Shown here in pieces: positions 5,105 through 61,374 of a stretch of 64,000 nt of DNA. The DNA comes from Eledone cirrhosa (Eukaryota), in contig OZ024741.1 of NCBI GenBank assembly GCA_964016885.1, positions 127,100,001-127,164,000 of the forward strand, in the 5' to 3' direction. Position numbers and translations under genes: made by a program. Every line of letters begins with the position of its first letter. Position 1 is the stretch's first letter. The notes under the pieces are model-generated. The model was not told the DNA's origin. It ran no database searches and saw nothing but the letters and a program-made list of their open reading frames with translations.

Positions 5105-5210
<106 letters not shown>

Positions 5211-5221
5211 AGTAAGTAAGA

Positions 5222-5314
5222 CCCCGACGGCTGAGCTCAAGCCGTTTCGACGGCTAATTCTGTACTGAATGAAAAATCAGTTCTGGTATTTAAATAGCCG
5301 AACTTGTCAAGGGG
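5222..5314 (-). ncRNA. Type I hammerhead ribozyme with U3-A8 variant core
   Basis: cccc-TTGACAA-g..cggcta...tagccgtc-GAAACGGCT-tgagctc-AGCCGTC-gggg. Confidence 0.75.
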
Positions 5315-5457
5315 CAATTCCATATATGGTCAAAGAGATAATCACCAGGATTGGTCATCCCACAAGGTAGTAGTAATTCAGCGAAGGCAAGTTGGTGGGG
5401 GAGGTAGCCAAACCTGCCAGTAGGAGAAAAGGGGAGAGGGGGCGGAGTAGACCCATA

Positions 5458-6023
5458 ATACCATCAAACTCTCTTACAGCACTACACCTAACTTCGCACA
5501 AAACATCGTCTCCTCCAACAACAAAAAACTCAACCCCGATGGAAGAAACAACCCAAATAGCAGTGGAGAGCCGACCAGGAGGTGCAACTGTCCTGATAGA
5601 TCAGGTTGCCCCCTCGACAACAGATGCAGAGACCGTAATGTGATCTACCAGTGCAACGTGAGCACGGACACCTTCAACAAAGCCTATATAGGATTGACCG
5701 CATGCGACTTCAAGACCCGGCTATACCAACACAGACATACCTTCCGAAACCCGGCCCGGCGTCACGCCACTACACTTTCGGGCCACATATGGGACCTCAA
5801 GGAAAACAACATCAACTATGATCTCACTTGGAAATTACTGTCCAGAGCCAACTCCTACACGGGAGGACGCTGTCCGTGCAATTTATGCTCGGAGGAAACG
5901 TTACAAATGCTGTTTTCGACGGACCAACTCCTTAACAAGAAAGATGAACTGGTTACTGCATGTAAACACCGATTACGTAGGACTTACCTCGCCCTCAAAC
6001 CCCATAATGACCCGGGGGGGTAG
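5458..6023 (+). pseudogene. PLE C-terminal Zn motif + GIY-YIG endonuclease (Naiad-like)
   Basis: NTIKLSYS...CNCPDRSGCPLDNRC..VIYQC...YIGLT..FKTRLYQH...CNLCSEE. Confidence 0.9.
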
Positions 6024-7876: not shown

Positions 7877-10800
7877 TTACAGATATATACTCAGAGTAGG
7901 CCCATTTACTCGGGCCATTCTTGCTTCTCTTACCCATCTTTCAACAAAATGCTGGGAAGAGAGCACTTCCCTCTCTACTCTGATTTTCCTTTTCAAATGA
8001 AATTTGAAAAAGTCCATCAGAGCATCACCGAAGAGGTAAGTGCTCGTCTTCAGCCCTTTCAAACGTGTCCACCATACTATCTCTTTCGCCATGTCCACCA
8101 GACAGATAAAAACTGCCTGCCCTTCCCGTCTAAAGGAGGAGGGCGGGGCAATCCTCACGATGGACTCAGCTGATAGCCGGATCCGTCCTAAACGCGACAG
8201 CAGGTGTTCGACATAAACCCACAAGTCAGCAATTTTCGGACACTGGACGAGTGCGTGCAGGACGGTTTCGTCGCCCTGTGCGCATCTCGGACATGCCCGG
8301 CTGACGGCACCTCCATGCCTGTAGAGTTTATCCCGAACTGGCAAGACTCCTCGGTAGCACTGCCAGGCCAGAGATTTCTGGAAGTTGTCCATAGGCCCTG
8401 GCCCGAAAGTTCTTCCGAAGAGATTGGCTAGTTGATTTTCGTCGACGCCTAGAGTTTCCCCAAGTACGTCGTCGCTCTTCCCCTCCACTAATCCTCTATA
8501 GAACGCCGAGGTGGAGTTTCCACCGATCACATTGCCCGATTGGTCGAGGGCTGTGAGCGCCTGAAGACATTCCAGTCTCCAGGCGCTCACTCTCGGTCTT
8601 CGCTTGACCCAGGACTGCAGCTCCGTCAAGGAAACGAGCTGGGGAAATACGTGTCTAGCAAACGGCGACCACACCTGATCACCGTCGAGGAAGAGGTGGA
8701 GATGTCGTAGCCTGAGCGCGTGCCTGTGCATCATCAGCCACGGCATGCCCAGCCCTCCACGTAGCGGGTGTTGACAACAGATGGACCGCCTGACCATCGG
8801 AGCGCGTCCCTTCCACAAAAAGCGAAAGAGCAAACGCTTCAGCGCAGTCAGGCGAGGCTTAGGACAAGGTACGACGGTCAGGCGGTAGCAGATGACAGAC
8901 GCGATGTACGCGTTAGCCACCTCCGCTCGACCTTTCAGGGATAGCTTCCTCTCCGCCCATTTCTGGGTGAGAGAAGCCACCCTGCTCGTCACCTCGTCCC
9001 AGTTTTTGTCCGTCTGGAGGTCCGGACCGAACCAGACCCCTAGCAATTTAACCGGTCCGTCCGTCCAGTGTCCGACGACGCTGTTGGACAGCATGGACCT
9101 GCCTCTCCAGGTGCCGAGTTGCAGGCCCACTGACTTTTCCTGGTTTATCATTGCTCCTGTCACCGCTTCGTATTCTCTTAGTGTAGTGCCGATCGCCTCG
9201 ATGCGTTTGGCGTTCGACACCACTACGGTGACATCGTCCGCATATGCTGACACGGATCTTCCGCATCCTAGTTCGCGCGGGACGCCCCTCAACGTCTCCA
9301 GTTTGTGCAGTAATTGCTCGAGAGTCAATACGTACAAGAGGGACGAGAGGGGACATCCTTGGCGGACCGAGCGCATGATGTTGAACGGTTCCGACAGGTG
9401 ACCGTTCACTCTCACCACAGAGCAGATGTCGCTGTGCATGGCAGTGATCCAGCCTCTGAAGACGGGCCCAAAGCCAGCCGCCCTCAGGACTGCCACTAGG
9501 TAACGATGGTCGACCCTATCGAAAGCTTTCGACTGATCTAAATTGATCAAGGACCCACCCGTGCCAGGTTCCCTAGCTACCCTCTCTACGATGTATCGCA
9601 TGAGGTGGAGGTTGTCGTGGATGGATCTGTCGGGAATGGCGCATGTCTGCGCCTCTCCCACCAGACCACCAACGACAAGCGCCAACCTCTTTGCTAGCAC
9701 CTTGGCCAAAATCTTGAACTCTGTGTTTAGCAGAGTTATGGGCCGGAAATTATCTATGTTATCCCCCTTGTTCGGATCCTTTCTCAGCAGTGCCACCGCT
9801 CCTCGGCTCACAGAACTGGTAATTCTCCCGTTCTGTTGCCAGTTGCAGTAGACGTCCGCCAAGAGGCCTCCGAACAAGTCTGGCATCTGTACGTAAAGTT
9901 CATAGGGCAGACTATCCAAACCAGGCGATTTACCCCTTGTGCAGCTAGTCATTGCCTCCCTTACTTCAGCGGCTGTTATCGGCTTTTCGCAAAACCTCGC
10001 CTCAGTGGCCGAGAGCCGCGGCAGTCCGTCGAGGTAGACACTAAAGTCCATCCCTCGACCCGGCCCACAGCTTCCCCCGAACAGCTGAGCGAAGTGTCGC
10101 TGAAAAGCTTCACACATTTTCCCGGGATCGAGTAGCATGCGCCCGTCGTGGTCCACCAAAGACCGGATCGTGGCTTTGTTGCCACGACGCGCCTCCGCCA
10201 CTCGGGCCCATTGAACGGCTTTCGTCCCCTCGTGTCTGAGAGAACGCACCCTAGCTCTGACAACGCAGCCTTCATGCTTTGCATTGAAGAATTGGTCAAG
10301 GGACAATTTCGCCGCAAGCACGTCGGTCGCAATGCCTTTGCTAAGCGCCTCGTCTAATTTTCTAACTAGTTCTCCCTCTGCTCTATTTTTCTCTATTGCT
10401 AAAGCCTTACTAAACCTAATGGATTCTATTCTAATCGCTCTTTTCAGAGCAAACCACCACTTGTTGTTGACGATGGCCCCCGTCAACGCCCGCTTAACTA
10501 GTTCGCTAATCCGGTCTCTGTAGGCCTTGCGCGCTGGTAAGGACGCGTTTAGCTTCCAGTAGCCGGGTCCTCGTCTATGAAGCCTATCTAAGTCAAGCAC
10601 ACAGATCACGAATTTGTGGTCCGTGTAGCTGACTATCTTGAATTGTGGACAGCCTATGCTAGACCTATCTATTTCCCTACAAAATACTCTATCTAGATAT
10701 AATCTGGATGACCCTATGCGATTTGTCCAAGTCCACATTGGCGCATTCGGGAAATCCAATCGGTACCTGTCAGCCAGTTCAAAACGCCTGAGCAGGTTGG

Positions 10801-11296
10801 TGAGGCTCTTGCACCCTCCACCCCTATCCGCTAATCCCACACAGTCTCAGCGTGCATCTAAGATCCCGTTCCAGTCGCCCACTAACACTAAAGAGCGGGA
10901 CGTTCCAAGAAAGGTCTCCAGACGCCGGAAGAAATCAGGCTGCCCTGCTCCTGTCGAGGCATAGACGGCCACTAGCCTGAAAGCTTGCCCGTCTCCGCTG
11001 GTCACGTCCAGCACCACCAGCTTACCCTCTGGGTCCAGGAAGATGGCCCGTATGGCGAGATCCAAACCTCTCCGAAAAAGCACAGCAACTTCTCCCCCCG
11101 ATCCAGGACGGCTGGGAGATGCGTACACATCGTAGCCGCCGAAGATCGGTGCGAAGGCCCGTGCTTCGGAGATTCTGGTCTCGCTGATGGTCACTACATC
11201 TATGTTTAGTGACCTGAGGTCTTTGAGCAGGTGACCCTGTTTCCATGACGACCCCAAGCCACGCGCATTTATGCTGCCTATTCTGAGTGAGGTCAT
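7877..11296 (-). pseudogene. Tx1 ORF2 (APE endonuclease, RT, C-terminal CCHC) with one frameshift near 10843
   Basis: GSINARG, SET, VGDWN, YTDH, KSPGLD, DQSKAFD, QGCPLS, AYADD, CPRC..ETVLHALVQC; ORFs 10847-11296 and 7877-10840. Confidence 0.95.
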
Positions 11297-11331
11297 GTTT
11301 AAAATAGAGTGGAAAAGATGGGAAAGACCAC

Positions 11332-12914
11332 TTACCGTACTTTTGGTAGAGGAGGGATGGTTTTTACATCCCTTTTCACTTGATCGTCTGGTGAAGGGAC
11401 CGTTGAATCGTCCCTTCGGCTGGTCATCGGCTCTCCTATGAGTATGTCCGAATATACTCTTCGGTTGATAGTTCCTCCTAGGTCTCTGAAATGACCAACT
11501 GCGTTGGGGAATTTCGTTTTAATGTTTGTGTATTGTTTCTGTGCTATTTTTAGCAGTCTTATGTTAGTTGGCGTTTTGATTGGTGCTGGTATTATGTAGT
11601 CGTGCTGTGAAATGTCTGTGTGTTCAGTTATGTAAGTCATTAGTTTCTTGTTGTGTGTATTTATTGCTGTGCATTTGTTTTTCTGGGGGTGGGGTGTGGT
11701 TCTGCTATTTTCTTGTCGTTATTGCTGGGTGTGTGTGTTTTGTTGCTGTGTTTGCGATATTGGTGCTTGTGGTGGTGGTGTTGAAGGTGTTGTTGTTGTT
11801 GGCGGTGGGGTTGTCGCCGGTGGTGATGGTGGTGCTAGTGTGGGTGGTGATGGTGTTGGTGGTGTTGCTGCTGTGAGTCTATTTGCAGTAGCCTTTACCC
11901 TTTTTTCATTTCTTTCCTCCCTTTTCGAAGACGACGATGCGCTGCTTCTGCGTTTGTGCCTTCTTACGACCTTTTGCCATCCCTCTCCCACCTCACACTC
12001 CATGTCTGATTCTGTGAGGTCGGGGAGGGGTACCAGCTCCACTCTTTCACTTGTTGTTGTTGGTGATGTTTGCAGTGGAGTCTCTGTTGCAGCTGCATTT
12101 GGTATTGCTGTTGTTGTTGTTAATATTTCCACTGCTGCTGCTGTTTTTGATTTCCTAAGGCTTTTTGTATTTGAGCCTCTGTGGCTCTTTCAACCCTACG
12201 GGATTTTGTGCTTACTGTACGGTACGTGACCGTACAGTGCTGTTGGGTTTCGAAGATGTTTTCGGCTGCCTTGCAGATTGCTCGGTGTCCGGTTTTCATC
12301 ACCATCTTCTTCGCTTCCTCTAATTCCTCATTTGTTATGAGGATGGTTTCCAGGTTCTTTGCGATACCTGCAAACGAGATTGGTTTTTCTTTGCTACTGT
12401 TGTTGTTGTTGTTGTTGTTGTCGTCAGAGCTGCTGTTACTTTTGTTGTTGCTGCAGGTACTACGACTACTGCCGCCGCCGCTGTTGCTGTGGTTGTTGTT
12501 GTTGTTGCTGCTGCTGCTGTTGTTGTTGCTGTTGCTGCTAATGCTGTTGTTGTTTATGCTGCTGCTGATGCTGTTGCGGCTGCTACTGTTGTTTTCCTTG
12601 TCACTGTTGCTGCTGCTGCTGTTATTACGGCTGCCACTGCTATTATTCCTGAGGTCAGACGAATGAAATGGGTTTTCGTATTTCCCGCACACCTTTTTCG
12701 TCGTTGTCGTCGTCGTCGTGGAGAAATCTTGCACGCTTTGCACGTGATTTTTCTTTTCTGGCGTCGCTTGCGAAAAAGAAGGGAGGGAGAGAGACAATCT
12801 TCTCTCTGCTGTCGTGACGATTGAGGAAGAAGAAGGCGGAATGAGTGGGAGTGACCTATGAAAATTCTTTTTTGTAGCCATGTTGTTTTTTTGTTTAAAA
12901 TAAATATTGGGCAC
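11332..12914 (-). pseudogene. Tx1 ORF1, disrupted, with Ser/Asn- and Pro/Thr-rich tracts
   Basis: Consecutive minus-strand ORFs 12120-12914, 11719-12132 and 11332-11640 upstream of ORF2. Confidence 0.7.
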
Positions 12915-13099
12915 AAAACCCCAATAAGCGGTTATTTAACCCCGAAGGGCCAAATAACAGGCAGAAAGACCCCTCTCACGAGGAGGAGGAGGGTGTTTTT
13001 GTCTACAATTTGGTTAAAGTTTTAAACAATTTACGATTGTTATAGCGGTCAAAATTTACAATACCTTACAGAGCCGAGCCTCCGTCAACCGTAGCATTC

Positions 13100-21195: not shown

Positions 21196-21198
<3 letters not shown>

Positions 21199-21424
21199 AA
21201 CCAGTAAGACCCCGACAGCTGAGCTCAAGCCGTTTCGACGGCTAATTCTGGACTAAAAAAAAAAAAAAAAAAATTTTTTTTTTTTTTAGTCCAGAATTAC
21301 CCGTCTAAACGGCTTGAGCTCAGCTGTCGGGGTCTTACTGGTTCCTATTACCCACTCTACTACCTCAAGTATTGAGTACTTTGGTGCGTTATGGTCCACC
21401 TGGTTCCTTACCACATTTCCTTCG

Positions 21425-21427
<3 letters not shown>
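21196..21427. mobile_element. Family B mini-foldback with A19T14 centre
   Basis: Arm 21196-21254 is inverted relative to 21288-21348; tail on the right. Confidence 0.85.
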
Positions 21428-22579: not shown

Positions 22580-24110
22580 TATATTAGATAGAATCATACC
22601 GCAACTTACCTAAAACTATGGAACGGTACTAATGAGGTTATAGATTGGTTCAATAACATAAAATTTAAACATTCATTCAATTGGATATTGCAAACTACTA
22701 CTCCTCTATTACTCCTAATTTACTTAATAAAGCTCTTATCTATGCATCTAAACATACAGATTTATCTAGCGAAGAAATGCATATCATTTTAACTGCACGG
22801 AAAACTTTTATTGAATTCAACAATCATCTCTGGACTAGAGCCGATAGAAAAAATAATTTTGATATCACCATAGGATCATCAGACTCGGCGCAAATAACGG
22901 ATCTTGTGGGAATATTTATTAATAGAAAAATACCAGAGATGACCAGTGGTTTATATCGTGATATATGCTGCTTTTAATTGAAAATCATAGTCATTGTGAA
23001 ATTAATAGGAAAAGAAAAGCCATAATACAATTCTTCAATAGCTACAACCTTAAGTTAGAAATAGAGAATAACTATACAATTGTTAACTTTTTAGACGTAA
23101 CATTAAACCTTAACACAGGGCTCTACTATCCATTCCATAAAATTAATGAGAATCTAAACTATGTAAGTTTTAACTCTAATCATCCTAGATCTATCAAGAA
23201 CACTATTATTATTCAATAACGTATTTCACGCATCTCCGCTAATAAAAACATTTTTGACGATAAGGCAGAATATTATAATGAAGCTTTAAATAGAGCAGGC
23301 TATATAAATAAGATTAAATACATCGACAACAATAATAAGGCAAATAACCCTAATATTAATTATAATTATAATAAAAAATGTTACTTAAACTCTAAAACTA
23401 GCAGAAGAACTAGAACTAGATATATTATTTGGTATTCACCCCCATTCTCATTAAGCGTAAAAACACCTTTAGCAAAGCTATTCTTTAAAGCACTAGATAA
23501 ATGTTTTCCTAAAGCCCACAGATACCACTCAATCTTTAACAGACATACTATAAAACTATCCTACTCTACCACTATGAACATAGCACAAAATATAAATAGA
23601 ATTAATAATAGAAATTTAAACCCTAAGCAAAATAACCAAAATAGCAGTAATATCTCTAGCAATATCCAACATAATAGTACCGTTCTGAATAACAACTCCG
23701 CAAAATGTAACTGTAGAATTAAATCAAACTGTCCTTTACAAAATAAGTGTTTAGATAAGGATGTCGTCTATAAATGTACAGTCAAAACCAGTGATAATAT
23801 ATTTAACTATGTAGGTGCAACTTCTACAGAATTTAAAAGTCGCTGGAATAATCACGAGTGTTCTTTCCGAAGATTTGATAAAAAAATTTTAACTCCTCTT
23901 TCAAACCTGATATGGAACTTAAAATGCAAGAATATGGACTATTCATTAACTTGGGAAATAGTTTCAAAAGCACCCGCGTACCGAAACACAGCTTTATCTA
24001 GATTCTGTAAATTTTTTCATACTTAAATGTAAGAACTTTATTAATCTAAGAACGAATTTATTTAATTCTTGTAGACATCGTCTGCATTCAACATTCAGAA
24101 CTATATATAA
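22580..24110 (+). pseudogene. Naiad-like PLE RT + GIY-YIG, disrupted
   Basis: DIANYYSSI, FDITIGSSDSAQ, LYRD, NFLDVTL, SNHP, CNCRIKSNCPLQNKC..VVYKC..YVGAT. Confidence 0.9.
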
Positions 24111-25500: not shown

Positions 25501-25587
<87 letters not shown>

Positions 25588-26118
25588 CATCTGTATGTGT
25601 ATATATATATATATATTGGTAAACGGAAAGGAAAATGCTGACAAATTGTTCACAGTGAAAAATAGTTTAATTAGGAATAAGTGAGAATTAGTAATAGTAT
25701 TGGTTAGTATTCAGTTTTGGTTTTAAGTTTTACCGGTTGCGCATTTCTAATGCTTTTCAAAAATAATTTTGAGATAGAGCGTCCGTGATGTTTGCCCTGA
25801 TCTGATAGTTTTGGGAATTCTACCTGTTTTTATGTTAAAAAAGTGGCTCCAGCGGTATTAAAATAAGTTTTGCGCCAATTCGTGTTGCAAAAATTCTTGT
25901 GGTCAAAACAATTTTGATTGGTCGGTAGAGGTCATGTGAATGTAAAAAATTGATTTTGCGCCAAATGTAGGTTTGTGTCGGCTGACTGAGAAATAAGTCT
26001 TTCACAACAAATATGTGTGTGTGTGTAGTAGTAGTAAATAGGTTCGTTGTTGTGATAATGGTCAGCAGGGATGTGTATGCGAACCGCAGCCTGTTGACAG
26101 TTCAAATGCCTATTAAGA

Positions 26119-26181
<63 letters not shown>

Positions 26182-26366
26182 CAGAGTAATTCGTGGTAGA
26201 GGGATGGTGAGTAGGAATGTGCCTGTAAGTGTGTGGGGGATATTTTAACATGTTAAAAGATATTTTTTCAGCTCTTGTCTTATACGGAGAAGTGTGTGTG
26301 TGTGTGTGTATGTGTGTGTGCGTGTGTCTCTTTGTATGTTAATGTACGCGTGTGTGTATGTGTGTG

Positions 26367-26447
<81 letters not shown>

Positions 26448-26624
26448 AAGAGAGAATGTGTGTGTGTGTGTGTGTGGATGGATCAGTATTTATTTCTGTT
26501 GAAATGGTGTACATTATTCGATATTTTCAGTAAAATCGATTCTCTCAATAGAACATCAAAAACCTTAATAATAAAAGGTGTGAAATGATATATAGTATTG
26601 GCATAATACCAAGGTGTGTGTGAG

Positions 26625-26880
26625 TGTCCAGATTGTACGTACTGCAAGGGGATCCATTAGGCATTGCCGTATTGGAATACCTGTGCACAAATATGTATCT
26701 GGAGTGTGTCCAGAAATTGTATAGCTGTGCACAAATTGTACACATGTATCTGGAGTGTGTCCAGAAATTGTATACCTGTGCACAAATATGTATCTGGAGT
26801 GTGTCCAGATTGTACGCACTGCAAGGGGAATTCATTAGGCTTTGCCGTATTTGAATACCTGTGCACAAATATGTATGTGC
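26625..26880. repeat. ~44-bp minisatellite in the Neptune 3' region (mirror at 44140-44410)
   Basis: Repeated tgtgcacaaatatgtatctggagtgtgtccaga units. Confidence 0.85.
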
Positions 26881-27102
26881 CCATCAGTGTGCAATGCATG
26901 TGTACGTTTATGTATGTGTGTGTGTTGGCACGTTTATATCTATAGACATCAAAAGGTATGCAAATTTGTGTATATTTGTGTTGCACCATAGAACATGTGT
27001 GTTTGCGTATGTCATTGTGTTTATATGTGGGTAGAGATGTATGCTGATGTAGCTATGTATGTTGACGTGTGTATGTTGACGTGTGTATGTTGTGGGTTCG
27101 TC

Positions 27103-29430
27103 TTAGGGAGAAGTGTTTAGACGGGGTCCGTATTTGTTAATAAAGTAAGATTCCTTGCTGATGCACTGGGTGTGGGTGGCATTATCTTTAAATTTGTAGA
27201 AGGGAAAGATTCTGAAGTTGGGATGATTTTGGGCGGCACATGTATCAATGTGTTCACTCAGTGGTATTTTCCTGTATTCCCGTATTTTAATTTGGGATCT
27301 ATGGACAGTCATGCGTTGGCGGAGGCTGTTTTTGGTCTGGCCTATGTATTGTTCCCGACAACCTGAGCAAGTTAATACATATATTAGATTTTCTGATGCG
27401 CATGTGAAATTGTGTTTTACTATAAAACGTTGTCATCCTTTGAAATAGAATTCCGAACCCTCTATTAGGTTGATGCAAATGCCATAGTTGGGTCTATCGC
27501 ATTTTTTTACTGTGGGTTTCGTTGTTGTGGTTGGCAGTACTTTGGCATGTGTTAGGATGTTTTTCATTGACTTAGATTGTCTTTTGCTCTTTATGATATC
27601 GTGTGTTCGTAGGATTTGGTTCATTCTATGGTCCTTTTTCAACACAGGGATGTTCTGGAGGATGGTGTCAAAGGCTTCATTGTTGAGGGGGTTGTGTGTG
27701 GAGATGTATGGAAGAGCTTTTCGTTTCGGTTGATTTACTTTAGGGTGTCTAAGGTCCTGGGCACTGAGTTTTAGGGCACGTTGGATTCCATTGTCAATTA
27801 GTGATGCAAGGTAGTCCCTGCCTATGAGTGTGTCCTTTAGTTCTTGTAGCCGTAAGTAGCAGGTGTTTTTATTGGAGACTATAGTACAGATTCTCTTGGC
27901 TAAGTTGTAGGGAATATTAATTTTAACGTGTCTAGGGTGGCAAGAGTTGAAAGGAAGATATTGCTTGGAGTCTGTGGGCTTGTAGTATATGTCTGTTTCT
28001 ATTTTTTTGTTATGGATCTTAATGAGGATGTCGAGGAAGAGGAGTTGTTGATGGCTGTATTCCATCGTGAAGTTAATATTCGTGTTGAGCCCATTTATAA
28101 GGGTGTGAAATTCTTTAAGTTTCTCGATGTGTTCGTGCCAAAGGATGAAGCAGTCATCTAGATATCGCTTCCAGTTCCTTTCTATGTGTGAGTGGAGAGT
28201 GTTTCCAAATTTGTTTAGGACTTTAGTGTAGAGGGTGATTTCCAGGTATCCCATGACTAGGTTGGCATAAGTGGGGGATGTTTTCGTTCCCATAGCGGTC
28301 CCAGATTTCTTCCTGTAGGGTTTGTTATTGAAAACGAAGTAATTGTTCTCCAAGATAAATTTGAGTCCCTCTATCACGAATTCTTTTTTGATGCGTTGTG
28401 GGAGTTCATTGTGGTAATTATCCAGCCAGAATTGGATAGCTTCTATTCCTAGGTTGTGGGGGATGTTGGAGTATAGGTTGACTACATCGAACGTCACTAG
28501 TAGGGTTTGTTCAGAAAGTGGCATATTAGGGAGGTGATTGAGCATATCTAGGTCGTCCCTTATATAGCTTTTGATGTGTTTGAGAAAAGGCTTGAGAAGG
28601 GTATCAATGAAGTTGCTGAGGCGGTGGGTTTCGCAAGCGGAGCCTGCTATTATAGGTCTTAATTTGAGATCATTGGGTGAGGGGACATTGATGACTATGT
28701 CTGTGGCTTCCTTGCATGCCTTACTTATTAATTCGCTTTTATGTACTTTAGGGATACCGTAGAAAAGGTTGGATTTACTTGTGAAGTCTGTGATGAAGCT
28801 GAATTCCTTGTTAGTGAGTCCTTCTTTGTATTGGTTGATCAGAGTTTTTAGGTTTCTCATAATTTTCTGTTGATTGTAGTGTTCAGCCTTTTCGTAGTAT
28901 GTTTCGTTTTCCAAAGTGGAGAGCGCTAAGTTGATATAGAATTCTGTCTCCATTAGGACTACTGTACTCCCTTTATCAGCCTCTTTAATTGTAATGGTTC
29001 TGTCGGTTTTTAATCTATTTAATTCTTCCCATTCTTTCTTGTTGAGGTTTGGCTTGTGTTTTTGTCTGTGCAAGTGTTGGTAAGGGAAGTTTGTGATGTG
29101 TTCACAGAATTCGTCCAGGATTTTATTTCTACCTTTCGATGGGGTGTAATTGCTTCTATTTCTGGCTAATGATTCATCCTCATTGTACTGGTCGAATAGT
29201 TGTTCACTGAGTCGTAACTTTCTACAGAAGTCTGTGATGTCTTCCTTCATTTCATAGTAGTTAGGACGTAGTGGGGTCGGTGTAAATTTAAGACCTTTGG
29301 AGAGTAAGTTGATAAGGTTGGGCGTTGGTTCTGCACTAATAAGATTGATAATTTTAATTACTATCGGTTTCTCCTCCCTGTCTTGTGTTATTTTGTTTGC
29401 CTGTATCTGTGTGCTGTGTCTAAAAAATGG
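27103..29430 (-). pseudogene. PLE reverse transcriptase-GIY-YIG polyprotein with one in-frame TGA at 27433-27435
   Basis: LSKGLKFTPTP, ADKG, RPII, FDVVNLYSNIP, GTAMG, RYLDD, SCHP, LIYVLTC..C..QYIGQT. Confidence 0.92.
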
Positions 29431-30064
29431 TTGGGGTAGAGGGGTTGTCTGCTGATGTTAAGTGGTCTCCTGTGTTTGTTATATTCCTTGTTGTTGTAAA
29501 ATGTGGTTCGGGTTGGTGGTTGTAGATTGAACGGGGTGTGTTTCTATGTGCCATGTTGGATTGTGGTGTTGTAGGTGGCCTACGTTGTTGGTTGTATTGT
29601 GTGGTGTGGGTTTGTTGTGTATTGTGGAAGCGAGAGTTGAGAAAATGGAAATTACCTTGCTGTCCCCTTGAAGCGGGGAAGTTGTTACATCTATCATGGC
29701 GGTGGTATCTTTTCCCTATGTTTGACGATGAGGCATCCGCGTAGTAGTTGACTGATTTGGTATGGTGTCTCCTTGAAGGGGGAAAGTTGTAAATGTCATT
29801 CTGGGGGAGATGAGTTCTAGGGTTTTTGTTCCTTCTTATGGTAGCGAGATATTTATATGAGTGTGTGTGTGTGTATGTATATATAAATATATACAAATAT
29901 ATGCATGTATGTATATGTACATATATGTGTGTGTATATATATATATATATATTGGAAGATAGATAGATAACTAGAGAAATACATACATACATACATACAT
30001 ACATACATACATACATACATACATACATACATACATACATACATACATACATACATACATACAT

Positions 30065-36748: not shown

Positions 36749-36793
<45 letters not shown>

Positions 36794-36904
36794 CGGCGTA
36801 GGTGTAGGCTTGAAAATATATATATATGGGGTCCTGAATCTTTTCATATATATATCATCATCATTATCTTCATCACCGTTTAACGTCTATCTGCCACGCT
36901 AATA

Positions 36905-37278: not shown

Positions 37279-37314
37279 TCTTCTGATGAAGGACTAGCGT
37301 CCGAAACGTTAAGA
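37279..37314 (+). ncRNA. Minimal PLE-type hammerhead ribozyme
   Basis: tctt-CTGATGA-a-ggac-tagc-gtcc-GAAACGTT-aaga. Confidence 0.85.
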
Positions 37315-37412
37315 TCCACTTCCTGCTATATAAAGCGTTAACCTAATATATACCTTCCATATACTGTACCGATTGTGTTGTTATTTCTGTTTACCTTTTA
37401 CATACATACATA

Positions 37413-42625: not shown

Positions 42626-42633
42626 AATAAATA

Positions 42634-42679
<46 letters not shown>

Positions 42680-42684
42680 TATAC

Positions 42685-44651
42685 ATTTATCTTGGAGAAC
42701 AATTACTTCGTTTTCTATAACAAACCCTACAGGCAGAAATCTGGGACCGCTATGGGAACGAAAACAGCCCCCACTTATGGGATACCTGGAAATCACCCTC
42801 TACACTAAATTCCTAAACAAATTTGGAAACACTCTCCACTTACACATAGAAAGGAACTGGAAGCGATATCTAGATGACTGCTTCATCCTTTGGCACGAAC
42901 ACATCGAGAAACTTAAAGAATTTCACACCCTTATAAATGGGCTCAACACGAATATTAACTTCACGATGGAATACAGCCATCAACAACTCCCCTTCCTCGA
43001 CATCCTCATTAAGATCCATAACAAAAAAATAGAAACAGACATATACTACAAGCCCACAGACTCAAAGCAATATCTTCCTTTCAACTCTTGCCACCCTAGA
43101 CACGTTAAAATTAATATTCCCTACAACTTAGCCAAGAGAATCTGTACTATAGTCTCCAATAAAAACACCTGCTACTTACGGCTACAAGAACTAAAGGACA
43201 CACTCATAGGCAGGTACTACCCTGCATCACTAATTGACAATGGAATCCAACGTGCCCTAAAACTCAGTGCCCAGGACCTTAGACACCCTAAAGTAAATCA
43301 ACCGAAACTAAAAGCTCTTCCATACATCTCCACACACAACCCCTCAACAATGAGGCCTTTGACACCATCCTCCAGAACATCCCTGTGTTGAAAAAGGACC
43401 ATAGAATGAACCAAATCCTACGAACACACGATATCATAAAGAGCAAAAGACAATCTAAGTCAATGAAAAACATCCTAACACATGCCAAAGTACTGCCAAC
43501 CACAACAACGAAACCCAGAGTAAAAAAATGCGATAGACCCAACTGTGGCATTTGCATCAACCCAATAGAGGGTTCGGAATTCTATTTCAAAGAAGGACAA
43601 CGTTTTATAGTAAAACACAATTTCACATGCGCATCGGAAAATCTAATATATGTATTAACTTGCTCAGGTTGTCGGGAACAATACATAGGCCAGACCAAAA
43701 ACAGCCTCCGCCAACGCATGACTGTCCATAGATCCCAAATTAAAATACGGGAATACAGGAAAATACCACTGAGTGAACACATTGATACCTGTGCCGCCCA
43801 AAATCATCCCAACTTCAGAATCTTTCCGCTCTACAAATTTAAAGATAATGCCACCCACACCCAGCGCATCAGCAAGGAATCTTACTTTATTAACAAATAC
43901 GGACCCCGTCTAAACACTTCTCCCTAAGACGAACCCACAACATACACACGTCAACATACATACCTACATCAGCACACATCTCTACCCACATATAAACACA
44001 ATGACATACGTAAACACACATGTTCTATGGTGCAACACAAATATACACAAATTTGCATACCTTTTCATGTCTATAGATATAAACGTGCCGACACACACAC
44101 ATACATAAATGCACACATGTATTGCACACTGATGGGCACATACATATTTGTGCACAGGTATTCCAATACGGCAAAGCCTAATGAATTCCCCTTGCAGTAC
44201 GTACAATCTCGACACACTCCAGATACATATTTGTACACAGGTATACAATTTCTGGACACACTCCAGATACATGTGTACAATTTGTGCACAAGTATACAAT
44301 TTGTGCACAGGTATACTATTTCTGGACACACTCCAGATACATATTTGTGCACAGGTATTCCAATACGGTAAGGCCTAATGGATCCCCCTTGTAGTACGTA
44401 CAATCTGGACACACACACACACTCACACACACCTTGGTATTATGCCAATACTATATATCATTTCATACCTTTTATTATTAAGGGTTTTGATGTTCTATTG
44501 AGAGAATCGATTTTACTGAAAATATCGAATAATGTACACCATTTTACCAGAAAAAAATACTGGTCCACACACACACACACACACACATTCTCACACACAC
44601 ACATATATACACACATACACACGCGTACATTAACATACAAAGAGACATATA

Positions 44652-44682
<31 letters not shown>

Positions 44683-44791
44683 TTCTCCGTATAAGACAAG
44701 AGCTGAAAAATATATTTTAACATGTTAAAATATCCCCCACACACTACAGACACATTCCTACTCACCATCCCTCTACCATTAATTACTCTGC

Positions 44792-44825
<34 letters not shown>

Positions 44826-45357
44826 TCTTAATAGGCATTTGAACTGTCAACAGGCTGCGGTTCGCACACACATCCCTGCTGACCATTATCACAACAATGA
44901 ACCTATTTACTACTACTACACACACACACATATTTGTTGTGAAAGACTTATTTCTCAGTCAGCCGACACAAACCTACATTTGGCGCAAAATCAATTTTTT
45001 ACATTCACATGACCTCTACCGACCAATCAAAATTGTTTTGCCCACAAGAATTTTTGCAACACGAATTGGCGCAAAACTTATTTTAATACCGCTGGAGCCA
45101 CTTTTTTAACATAAAAACAGGTAGAATTCCCAAAACTAATCAGATCAGAGCAAACATCACGGACGCTCTATCTCAAAATTATTTTTGAAAATCATTAGAA
45201 ATGCGCAACCGGTAAAACTTAAAACCAAAACTGAATACTAACCAATACTATTACTAATTCTCACTTATTCCTAATTAAACTATTTTTCACTGTGAACAAT
45301 TTGTCACCATTTTCTATTCCGTTTACCAATATATATATATATATACACATACAGATG

Positions 45358-45435
<78 letters not shown>

Positions 45436-45458
45436 AAAAGGGGTTCGGAGGTGCGACA
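42685..45458 (+). mobile_element. Neptune-like PLE copy 2, 5'-truncated (RT-GIY-YIG to 43927)
   Basis: Near-identical inverse of 25458-28360; small deletion near 42778 and frameshift near 43342. Confidence 0.92.
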
Positions 45459-59156: not shown

Positions 59157-59344
59157 ACGAAGGAATTGTGCTAAGGAACCAGATGGACCATAACGCACCA
59201 AAATACTCAATACTTAGTGCAGTAGAGTGGGTAATAGGAACAAGCATGACCCCGACAGCAGAGCTCAAGCCGTTTCGACGGCTATTTCAGTCCAGAAATA
59301 GACGTCGAAACGGCTTGAGCTTTTCCGTCGGGGTCATACTTGCT

Positions 59345-59348
<4 letters not shown>
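59156..59348. mobile_element. Family B mini-foldback
   Basis: Left arm with tail 59156-59288; right arm 59289-59348 ending CCTAT(AT)n. Confidence 0.85.

Positions 59349-61066: not shown

Positions 61067-61374
<308 letters not shown>

Follow-up and report, generated by a model that had tools for sequence, protein, structure and literature searches.

Introduction

Hammerhead ribozymes are carried in the pseudo-LTRs of Penelope-like elements (PLEs), including a variant with a U3-A8 core (Cervera and de la Pena, 2014; PMC4209133), and the in vivo role of PLE hammerheads has been described as 'still unclear' (PMC8557442). For PAc, the Poseidon PLE of Anolis, two internal start sites of reverse transcription and AT-rich nicking have been described in vitro (Frangieh et al., 2024; PMC11167929); in the available part of that study, ribozyme mutants left in vitro insertion unaffected and no RNA-seq reads ended at the cleavage site. 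Genomic 5′ junctions of R2 record the cut site of its HDV-like ribozyme and also show non-templated bases as well as template jumps (Eickbush et al., 2013; PMC3774820). Metazoan non-LTR retrozymes, which are PLE-related and also carry type I hammerheads, consist of short tandem units that are non-coding and have been detected as circular RNA, and the available text on them reports no junction scars (PMC7229834; bioRxiv 10.64898/2026.07.22.740005); an RtcB-type ligase joins hammerhead ends in vitro (PMC7229834), and seamless ligation of this type would hide most cuts. A further study, in its available part, tests bacterial hammerheads only (PMC8782182). In the main texts of the literature covered, we found no report of base-precise genomic marks of PLE hammerhead cleavage or of tail-like scars.

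The element described here shares with the hammerheads of Cervera and de la Pena (PMC4209133), as far as the available text goes, the type I form in a pseudo-LTR, a long helix II, a short helix I, the covariant U3-A8 core and the G10.1-C11.1 pair. It differs in helix III, which here is a 5-bp stem with a 9-nt loop rather than the minimal dimer type, and in that the paper states that in vivo evidence is absent, whereas we find genomic marks at the bond. With PAc, judged from the parts of the report at hand, it shares AT-rich nicking of both strands, two internal start sites of reverse transcription that define tailed and tail-less ends, and a hammerhead upstream; the tail, however, is 82 nt here against 30-40 in PAc (a PLE tail of 30-40 bp is also given in PMC8557442), and the tail-less start lies only 17-19 nt from the cut, so that run-off stubs are visible.

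Results

A 19-nt insertion in a TA run

The window is the whole 64,000-nt stretch of Eledone cirrhosa DNA that was analysed (assembly GCA_964016885.1, contig OZ024741.1, positions 127,100,001 to 127,164,000). At 36828-36846 of its forward strand lies a 19-mer within (TA)n, with 11 nt of TA repeat on the left (36817-36827) and 9 nt on the right (36847-36855), where a target-site duplication is indistinguishable from the repeat. The 19-mer is the reverse complement of 61177-61195, where on the reverse strand it is preceded by GAAACGGCCGTC and ends at the tail-less boundary of the element. The exact identity claimed in the original prediction was thus confirmed; a third arm, at 61248-61266, matches with one mismatch, and 100 shuffles of the window gave 0 matches. 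The insert is the end of a PLE pseudo-LTR: it extends from +1 of the predicted hammerhead cut to the tail-less 3′ boundary, and its start coincides with the scissile bond predicted for a type I hammerhead with a U3-A8 core. The base before it is a T in phase with the TA run, where the parent has the C of a CpG, and the junction of this copy is therefore uncertain by 1-2 nt. The surrounding segment (36790-36900) has the insert nested among other TA-targeting repeats, and the SINE-like ends on either side presumably resemble octopod repeats.

The insertion at 61177-61348 consists of a tail-less and a tailed arm folded back on each other; their inner boundary is approximate. The tail-less arm (61177-61222, reverse strand) reads through the cut (61196|61195) and is without 11 nt of stem III and the catalytic core; the tailed arm (61223-61348, forward strand) has +1 at 61248, the tail-less boundary at 61266 and an 82-nt tail to 61348. 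The core is likewise absent from the 36828 insert. As the 5′ half of the catalytic core is missing from the 61177 insertion and its stem III is 11 nt shorter than in intact copies (such as L087 and L206), it is not itself a ribozyme, and the reading of this element as a minimal ribozyme had to be given up, the element being a damaged copy; in intact copies the assignment of the cut to GTC|GGGG still holds.

The element family

The genome (3.0 Gb) holds 1,435 exact arms of the 19-mer, and sister subfamilies with the same ribozyme and 17-nt end contribute 25,012 and 18,877 arms; 4,483 and 2,171 sister matches include the hammerhead core. Arms end tailed (82 nt) or tail-less within (TA)n. In a sister element (L187) the ORF is a frame of 710 aa that lies about 1.1 kb upstream of the hammerhead and in which inspection by eye shows RT-like (YRDD) and YIG/Cys motifs; GIY-YIG, RVT_1 and HTH_animal occur in its ORF atlas neighbours at 0.96-0.99, and Pfam and PDB searches gave no direct match for it. 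Related ORF remnants of the insert's own subfamily (about 55-85% identity in the main matches) occupy the same position, which in L196 is about 1.1 kb upstream of its hammerhead. One copy (L379) is continuous from the tail into the ORF, inverted arms occur in L187-L193, and five cores on C1 lie 3,542-3,543 bp apart, giving tandem units of about 3.54 kb; the region G000:C1:91473190-91493785 contains five tandem 3.54-kb units and an inverted copy of the youngest sister subfamily. The element is an endonuclease-bearing (EN+) PLE, with a reverse-transcriptase ORF whose C terminus is GIY-YIG-like, a pseudo-LTR with a hammerhead, an optional tail and microsatellite targeting. A non-LTR retrozyme was considered and ruled out: the unit is 3.5 kb and encodes an ORF, unlike the short non-coding tandem units of retrozymes as described in the available text.

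Sister copies are also present in the window. The pseudo-LTR arm at 5209-5460 (reverse strand) has a complete predicted hammerhead, with the 5′ strand of stem I at 5314-5311, the U3-A8 core at 5310-5304 and the cut at 5226|5225; at 5451-6023 (forward strand), inverted relative to this arm, lies the C-terminal GIY-YIG-like end of a sister ORF, near-identical, as judged by eye, to that of the L187 ORF. Two fold-backs, with approximate ends, read through the cut on both arms: 21197-21425 (+1 at 21213 on the reverse and 21329 on the forward strand) and 59158-59346 (+1 at 59253 on the reverse and 59330 on the forward strand). Further PLE-like RT and GIY-YIG frames occur at 27433-29457 (-), 42627-43927 (+) and 23220-24026 (+), two of the three inside a long inverted repeat (25506-28261 versus 42770-45439). 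The segments 7877-11518 (-) and 12120-12935 (-) contain a LINE-like RT frame as long as 989 aa, accompanied by an APE-like frame and by an ORF upstream; the frame length makes it look recent.

A predicted type I hammerhead

Intact copies of the own subfamily (L087, L095, L196 and L206) show, in order, CCCC, the core UUGAUAA, G, a long stem II, GAAA, the 5-bp stem III, GUC and GGGG. UUGA-N-AA (N = U, G, A or C, position 7 varying freely), GAAA and GUC are conserved across subfamilies; a C3.A8 form of the core is found in 27 among the matches listed (100 sister core matches). Over 18 copies, 95-97% of the cells in helices I-III are paired, and the G10.1-C11.1 pair is present; covariation is limited to two pairs changed on both sides, with 77 of 500 shuffles as high, in 18 closely related sequences. 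The pseudo-LTR thus carries a predicted type I hammerhead with a conserved U3-A8 core; both this core, as a PLE variant, and the element class are already known. Rfam hammerhead models gave no match in the window at the gathering score, nor in L379:1400-1750 at E ≤ 10. The unconstrained minimum fold is the hammerhead for members of subfamilies with many 5′ ends at the bond (L379, L171; see below), whereas for L175, L206, L196 and L087, where such ends are few, the hammerhead lies 2.7-5.2 kcal/mol above the minimum; that the calculated energies track spike strength across six copies is suggestive only. A canonical minimal hammerhead, with a CUGAUGA core but no stem III, is also present in the window at 37283-37315 (forward strand) and belongs to an unrelated family of about 3,095 copies.

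5′ ends accumulate at the bond in sister subfamilies

All tallies were made in one assembly, on near-exact, A/T-flanked copies. For the main sister group (25,012 arms), 36 rows begin exactly at the bond among the matches listed (100 of 318; hand tally). These represent 33 loci and, with three local duplicates and one segmental duplicate dropped, 32 independent events, of which four are scars (see below), two are possible local tandem copies and 26-28 are true 5′ ends. The other classes among the matches listed (100 of 318), counted with duplicates kept, are far smaller, with a mean of 2.4 per bond: two at +3, three at +2, one at +1, four at -1/-2, seven at -3, three at -4, three at -6/-7 and six at -8/-9. 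Against the largest neighbouring class, the spike has a Poisson P(≥26|7) of 3e-8. Genome-wide, 88 rows, some of them duplicated, begin at the bond in the sister subfamilies. Sixteen of the 5′ ends at the bond are tailed and 12 tail-less, and both start sites of reverse transcription therefore run off at the same base; the junctions at 0 share no microhomology with the TA target. In the C3.A8 TCCTACTCG subfamily (18,877 arms), which is mixed in makeup, the rate of 5′ ends at the bond is about 3.6-fold lower (P = 4e-4), with eight at 0 and five to six at -1/-2 among the matches listed (100 rows). Elsewhere, at L376 (G000:C12:24548324-24548444), six head-to-tail 24-bp units, each made of the cut-site stub and a short TA run, form a minisatellite born from the stub.

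A/T-rich scars at the bond

A second mark is found in copies with a whole ribozyme upstream, ending at GTC, followed by extra bases and then GGGG. In a search that allowed an insert at any of 10 bonds (a 9-nt stretch), all 96 rows with at least 4 extra nt were inspected. Eighteen rows (17 events) hold non-duplicative A/T-rich inserts of 5-30 nt, all of them at the bond and with intact flanks; two of these rows share their insert as the two arms of a single palindrome, and three inserts could be placed one base away. Tandem duplications, G-run expansions and local rearrangements account for the other 78 rows. The scars total 163 A, 62 T, 22 G and 8 C (64% A, 24% T), often with T first, and nine of them (16-30 nt) match their own 3-kb loci for at most 8-11 nt and are not copied from them. 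At 13 upstream control bonds a single filler, with a flanking duplication, was found among the matches listed (100 of 186), as against eight comparable scars in the same contigs. The core is carried by 16 of the 17 scarred arms, compared with eight of 70 control arms. The scars resemble tails on cleaved RNA that was rejoined during copying.

Copies with C3.A8 mismatch cores account for four of 16 scars, against an 18% share of cores; being scarred at the expected share, they gave no separation when tried as a dead-core control. An extra A-U pair in stem II marks a variant found in nine of 16 scars and in 2,171 of 6,654 cores, a weak enrichment (P = 0.04). In L228, two successive 5′ ends at the bond are joined through a short T/A tail on a 3′-truncated unit, an arrangement that fits a jump on linear cut RNA, and in L375 and L240 both arms end at the bond with filler between them. 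One fold-back, L370 (G000:C7:18516344-18516431), has tailed and tail-less arms with the same 5-nt scar on both, implying one template molecule or the copying of one arm from the other. A-rich scars are absent from the own subfamily in 64 rows and in 12 rows, where 0.6 would be expected. Two own-subfamily loci (L428 and L429) have G-rich inserts of 15-20 nt at or within the G-run after the cut, and one of 18 rows of the unrelated minimal-hammerhead family (3,095 copies) has an A/G-rich 7-nt insert at its predicted cut (L455).

The own subfamily of the insert

Read-through was assessed with 92 arms anchored on the exact 19-mer, from 90 loci covering the first part of the contig 1 list; two arms served as references, leaving 90. 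Seven of these 90 arms lose homology at the bond, compared with 22 events spread from -1 to -25 (1.2% per base; P = 1.3e-4), but several of the seven are inversion joints with possible G microhomology; the remaining 83 read through the cut site. Among all 75 A/T-flanked rows of the subfamily (hand tally; sets of 20 and six loci checked), five to six start at 0, with two inverted-tail joints also at 0, while -1/-2 forms a rival class that is as large (seven to 10) and about 15 are spread over the other 12 bonds; the excess at 0 has a P of 0.002-0.03, depending on the background. Thus, the excess at the bond is real but not sharp, and the prediction of a genome-wide spike of 5′ ends at GTC|GGGG holds strongly for the sister subfamilies and only modestly for the subfamily in which it was made. 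An A/T run directly precedes six of the 1,435 exact arms, and arms with an A/T run at the bond amount to 0.35-0.42%. Cleavage would be a minority route, since most copies read through the site. An R2-type 5′ end, set by the ribozyme in most complete insertions, was accordingly rejected: R2, judged from the available text, shares the cut site in genomic 5′ junctions, the non-templated bases and the template jumps, but it has another ribozyme and element class, and its cleavage sets the 5′ end of full-length copies, whereas here under 1% of arms are involved, as stubs or rejoined scars.

Most arms end inside stem II. In L379 a depth step lies at 1540-1560; most arms are without the core and stop in stem II, and scarred arms nearly always reach the core. 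Two putative classes of template, a core-less short RNA and a core-bearing read-through RNA, would fit this pattern.

For the single copy at 36828, the most serious alternative is that it is an ordinary 5′-truncated PLE stub, made by random fall-off of the reverse transcriptase or by later erosion through the TA repeat, which starts at the bond by chance or started at -1/-2 and lost its CpG C. The starts of short own-subfamily stubs are indeed spread over almost all positions between +5 and -9 (about 1.25-1.7 per bond), and the C-to-T decay at -1 that the second variant needs is common. Yet the five to six starts at the bond stand above this background, as do the seven breaks in the unbiased sample of 90, and an ordinary stub would leave the sister spike and the scars unexplained. 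We regard this origin as rather unlikely, and a start by hammerhead cleavage as the probable one for the 36828 copy. The claim that the insert is a cDNA of the self-cleaved 3′ product was therefore well supported for the class, by the spike of 5′ ends and the scars at the bond, but is no more than probable for one copy in a subfamily where -1/-2 is as large as 0 and most arms read through.

Discussion

Our main reading, to which we assign a probability of about 0.75, is that the insert is probably a short cDNA of RNA already cut by the element's own predicted hammerhead, with the 5′ ends and scars of the class as marks of cleavage. That the marks at the bond originate from cleavage, as a statement about the class, appears highly probable from the genomic copies.

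One other source of the spike would be pausing of the reverse transcriptase on uncut RNA at the folded three-way junction, at the entry to stem III. Stem III begins at -2, so that a pause would end the cDNA at -1 or 0; -1/-2 is indeed raised in two subfamilies, the own one and TCCTACTCG (in the latter, five to six versus eight at 0 among the matches listed), and the majority of arms stop within stem II. In the main sister group, however, 26-28 ends at 0 face only four at -1/-2 among the matches listed, and the scars are A-rich on the RNA-sense strand, reach 30 nt, neither lose nor repeat a flanking base and need the core upstream; a stalled enzyme that adds bases and then resumes would not be expected to do so at one bond only. 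Pausing is, in our view, an improbable source of the spike.

Cleavage could also be real but due to a protein nuclease, or to the ribozyme of another copy acting in trans, rather than to the element's own core. The scarring of C3.A8 copies at their expected share (four of 16 against 18%) is compatible with this, as is the report, in the available text, that the anole PLE hammerhead cleaved only with protein present (PMC11167929). The same text has cleavage abolished by core mutants but not by endonuclease mutants (PMC11167929), and here the cut falls precisely on the NUH bond of a core that is conserved. We regard a foreign cutter as distinctly improbable. The least probable account, that the joints arose at the DNA level through CG/CCG microhomology collapsing hairpin insertions to CCCC|GGGG with filler added by repair, draws on the common G-run slippage and on palindrome centres that follow microhomology (about 21 of 50 in the GAGCTC loop, nine of 50 at CCG and 10 of 50 at CG), but it is opposed by simple flank|GGGG junctions without microhomology to the TA target, by 0 of 50 centres at two neighbouring 2-nt palindromes, by scarred copies that are not hairpin centres (the L370 palindrome has the same scar on both arms) and by the one filler at control bonds among the matches listed.

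Some candidate evidence was set aside. Palindrome centres were rejected as proof of cleavage, because the gap limit had produced part of their pile-up; once the gap was widened, their positions tracked microhomology. Among assembled contigs of four sequencing runs, the one that ends near the bond is explained by a graph branch, and a search for stand-alone 5′ products returned matches dominated by other subfamilies.

If the insert is a cDNA of cleaved RNA, its formation can be sketched as follows. A minority of core-bearing transcripts would self-cleave in the germ line. The PLE protein would nick the TA run and prime reverse transcription at one of two internal sites, tail-less or tail-end, and the enzyme would run off the 5′-OH end 17-19 nt (or about 100 nt) further on, the stub being sealed in as the 36828 insert may have been. 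Healed 3′ ends receive mixed A/G and U tails from terminal transferases of the host. The upstream product may sometimes be A/U-tailed by these enzymes, and reverse transcription could then jump onto the tail, or the pieces could be ligated, to leave a scar at the bond. As seamless rejoining would leave no trace, 0.35-0.42% is a floor and not a cleavage rate. In the full sequence of events, germ-line cutting by the PLE hammerhead would be followed by healing of the cyclic-phosphate end and the addition of a mixed A/U/G tail, and a jump of the reverse transcriptase from the 5′-OH end onto that tail, or the copying of rejoined RNA, would leave a base-precise genomic record; we would put this at even odds.

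The base-precise 5′ ends and tail-like scars provide germ-line evidence on in vivo cutting by PLE hammerheads, here with a non-canonical U3-A8 core. Wherever a genome has many PLE copies they offer a cheap test, and they suggest that template jumping or RNA repair takes part in PLE transposition. If the proposed route is true, PLE transposition could normally include a step of cut-and-rejoin or circles, with most events hidden by seamless rejoining, and the height of the spike in each subfamily would be a read-out of in vivo activity from any assembly.
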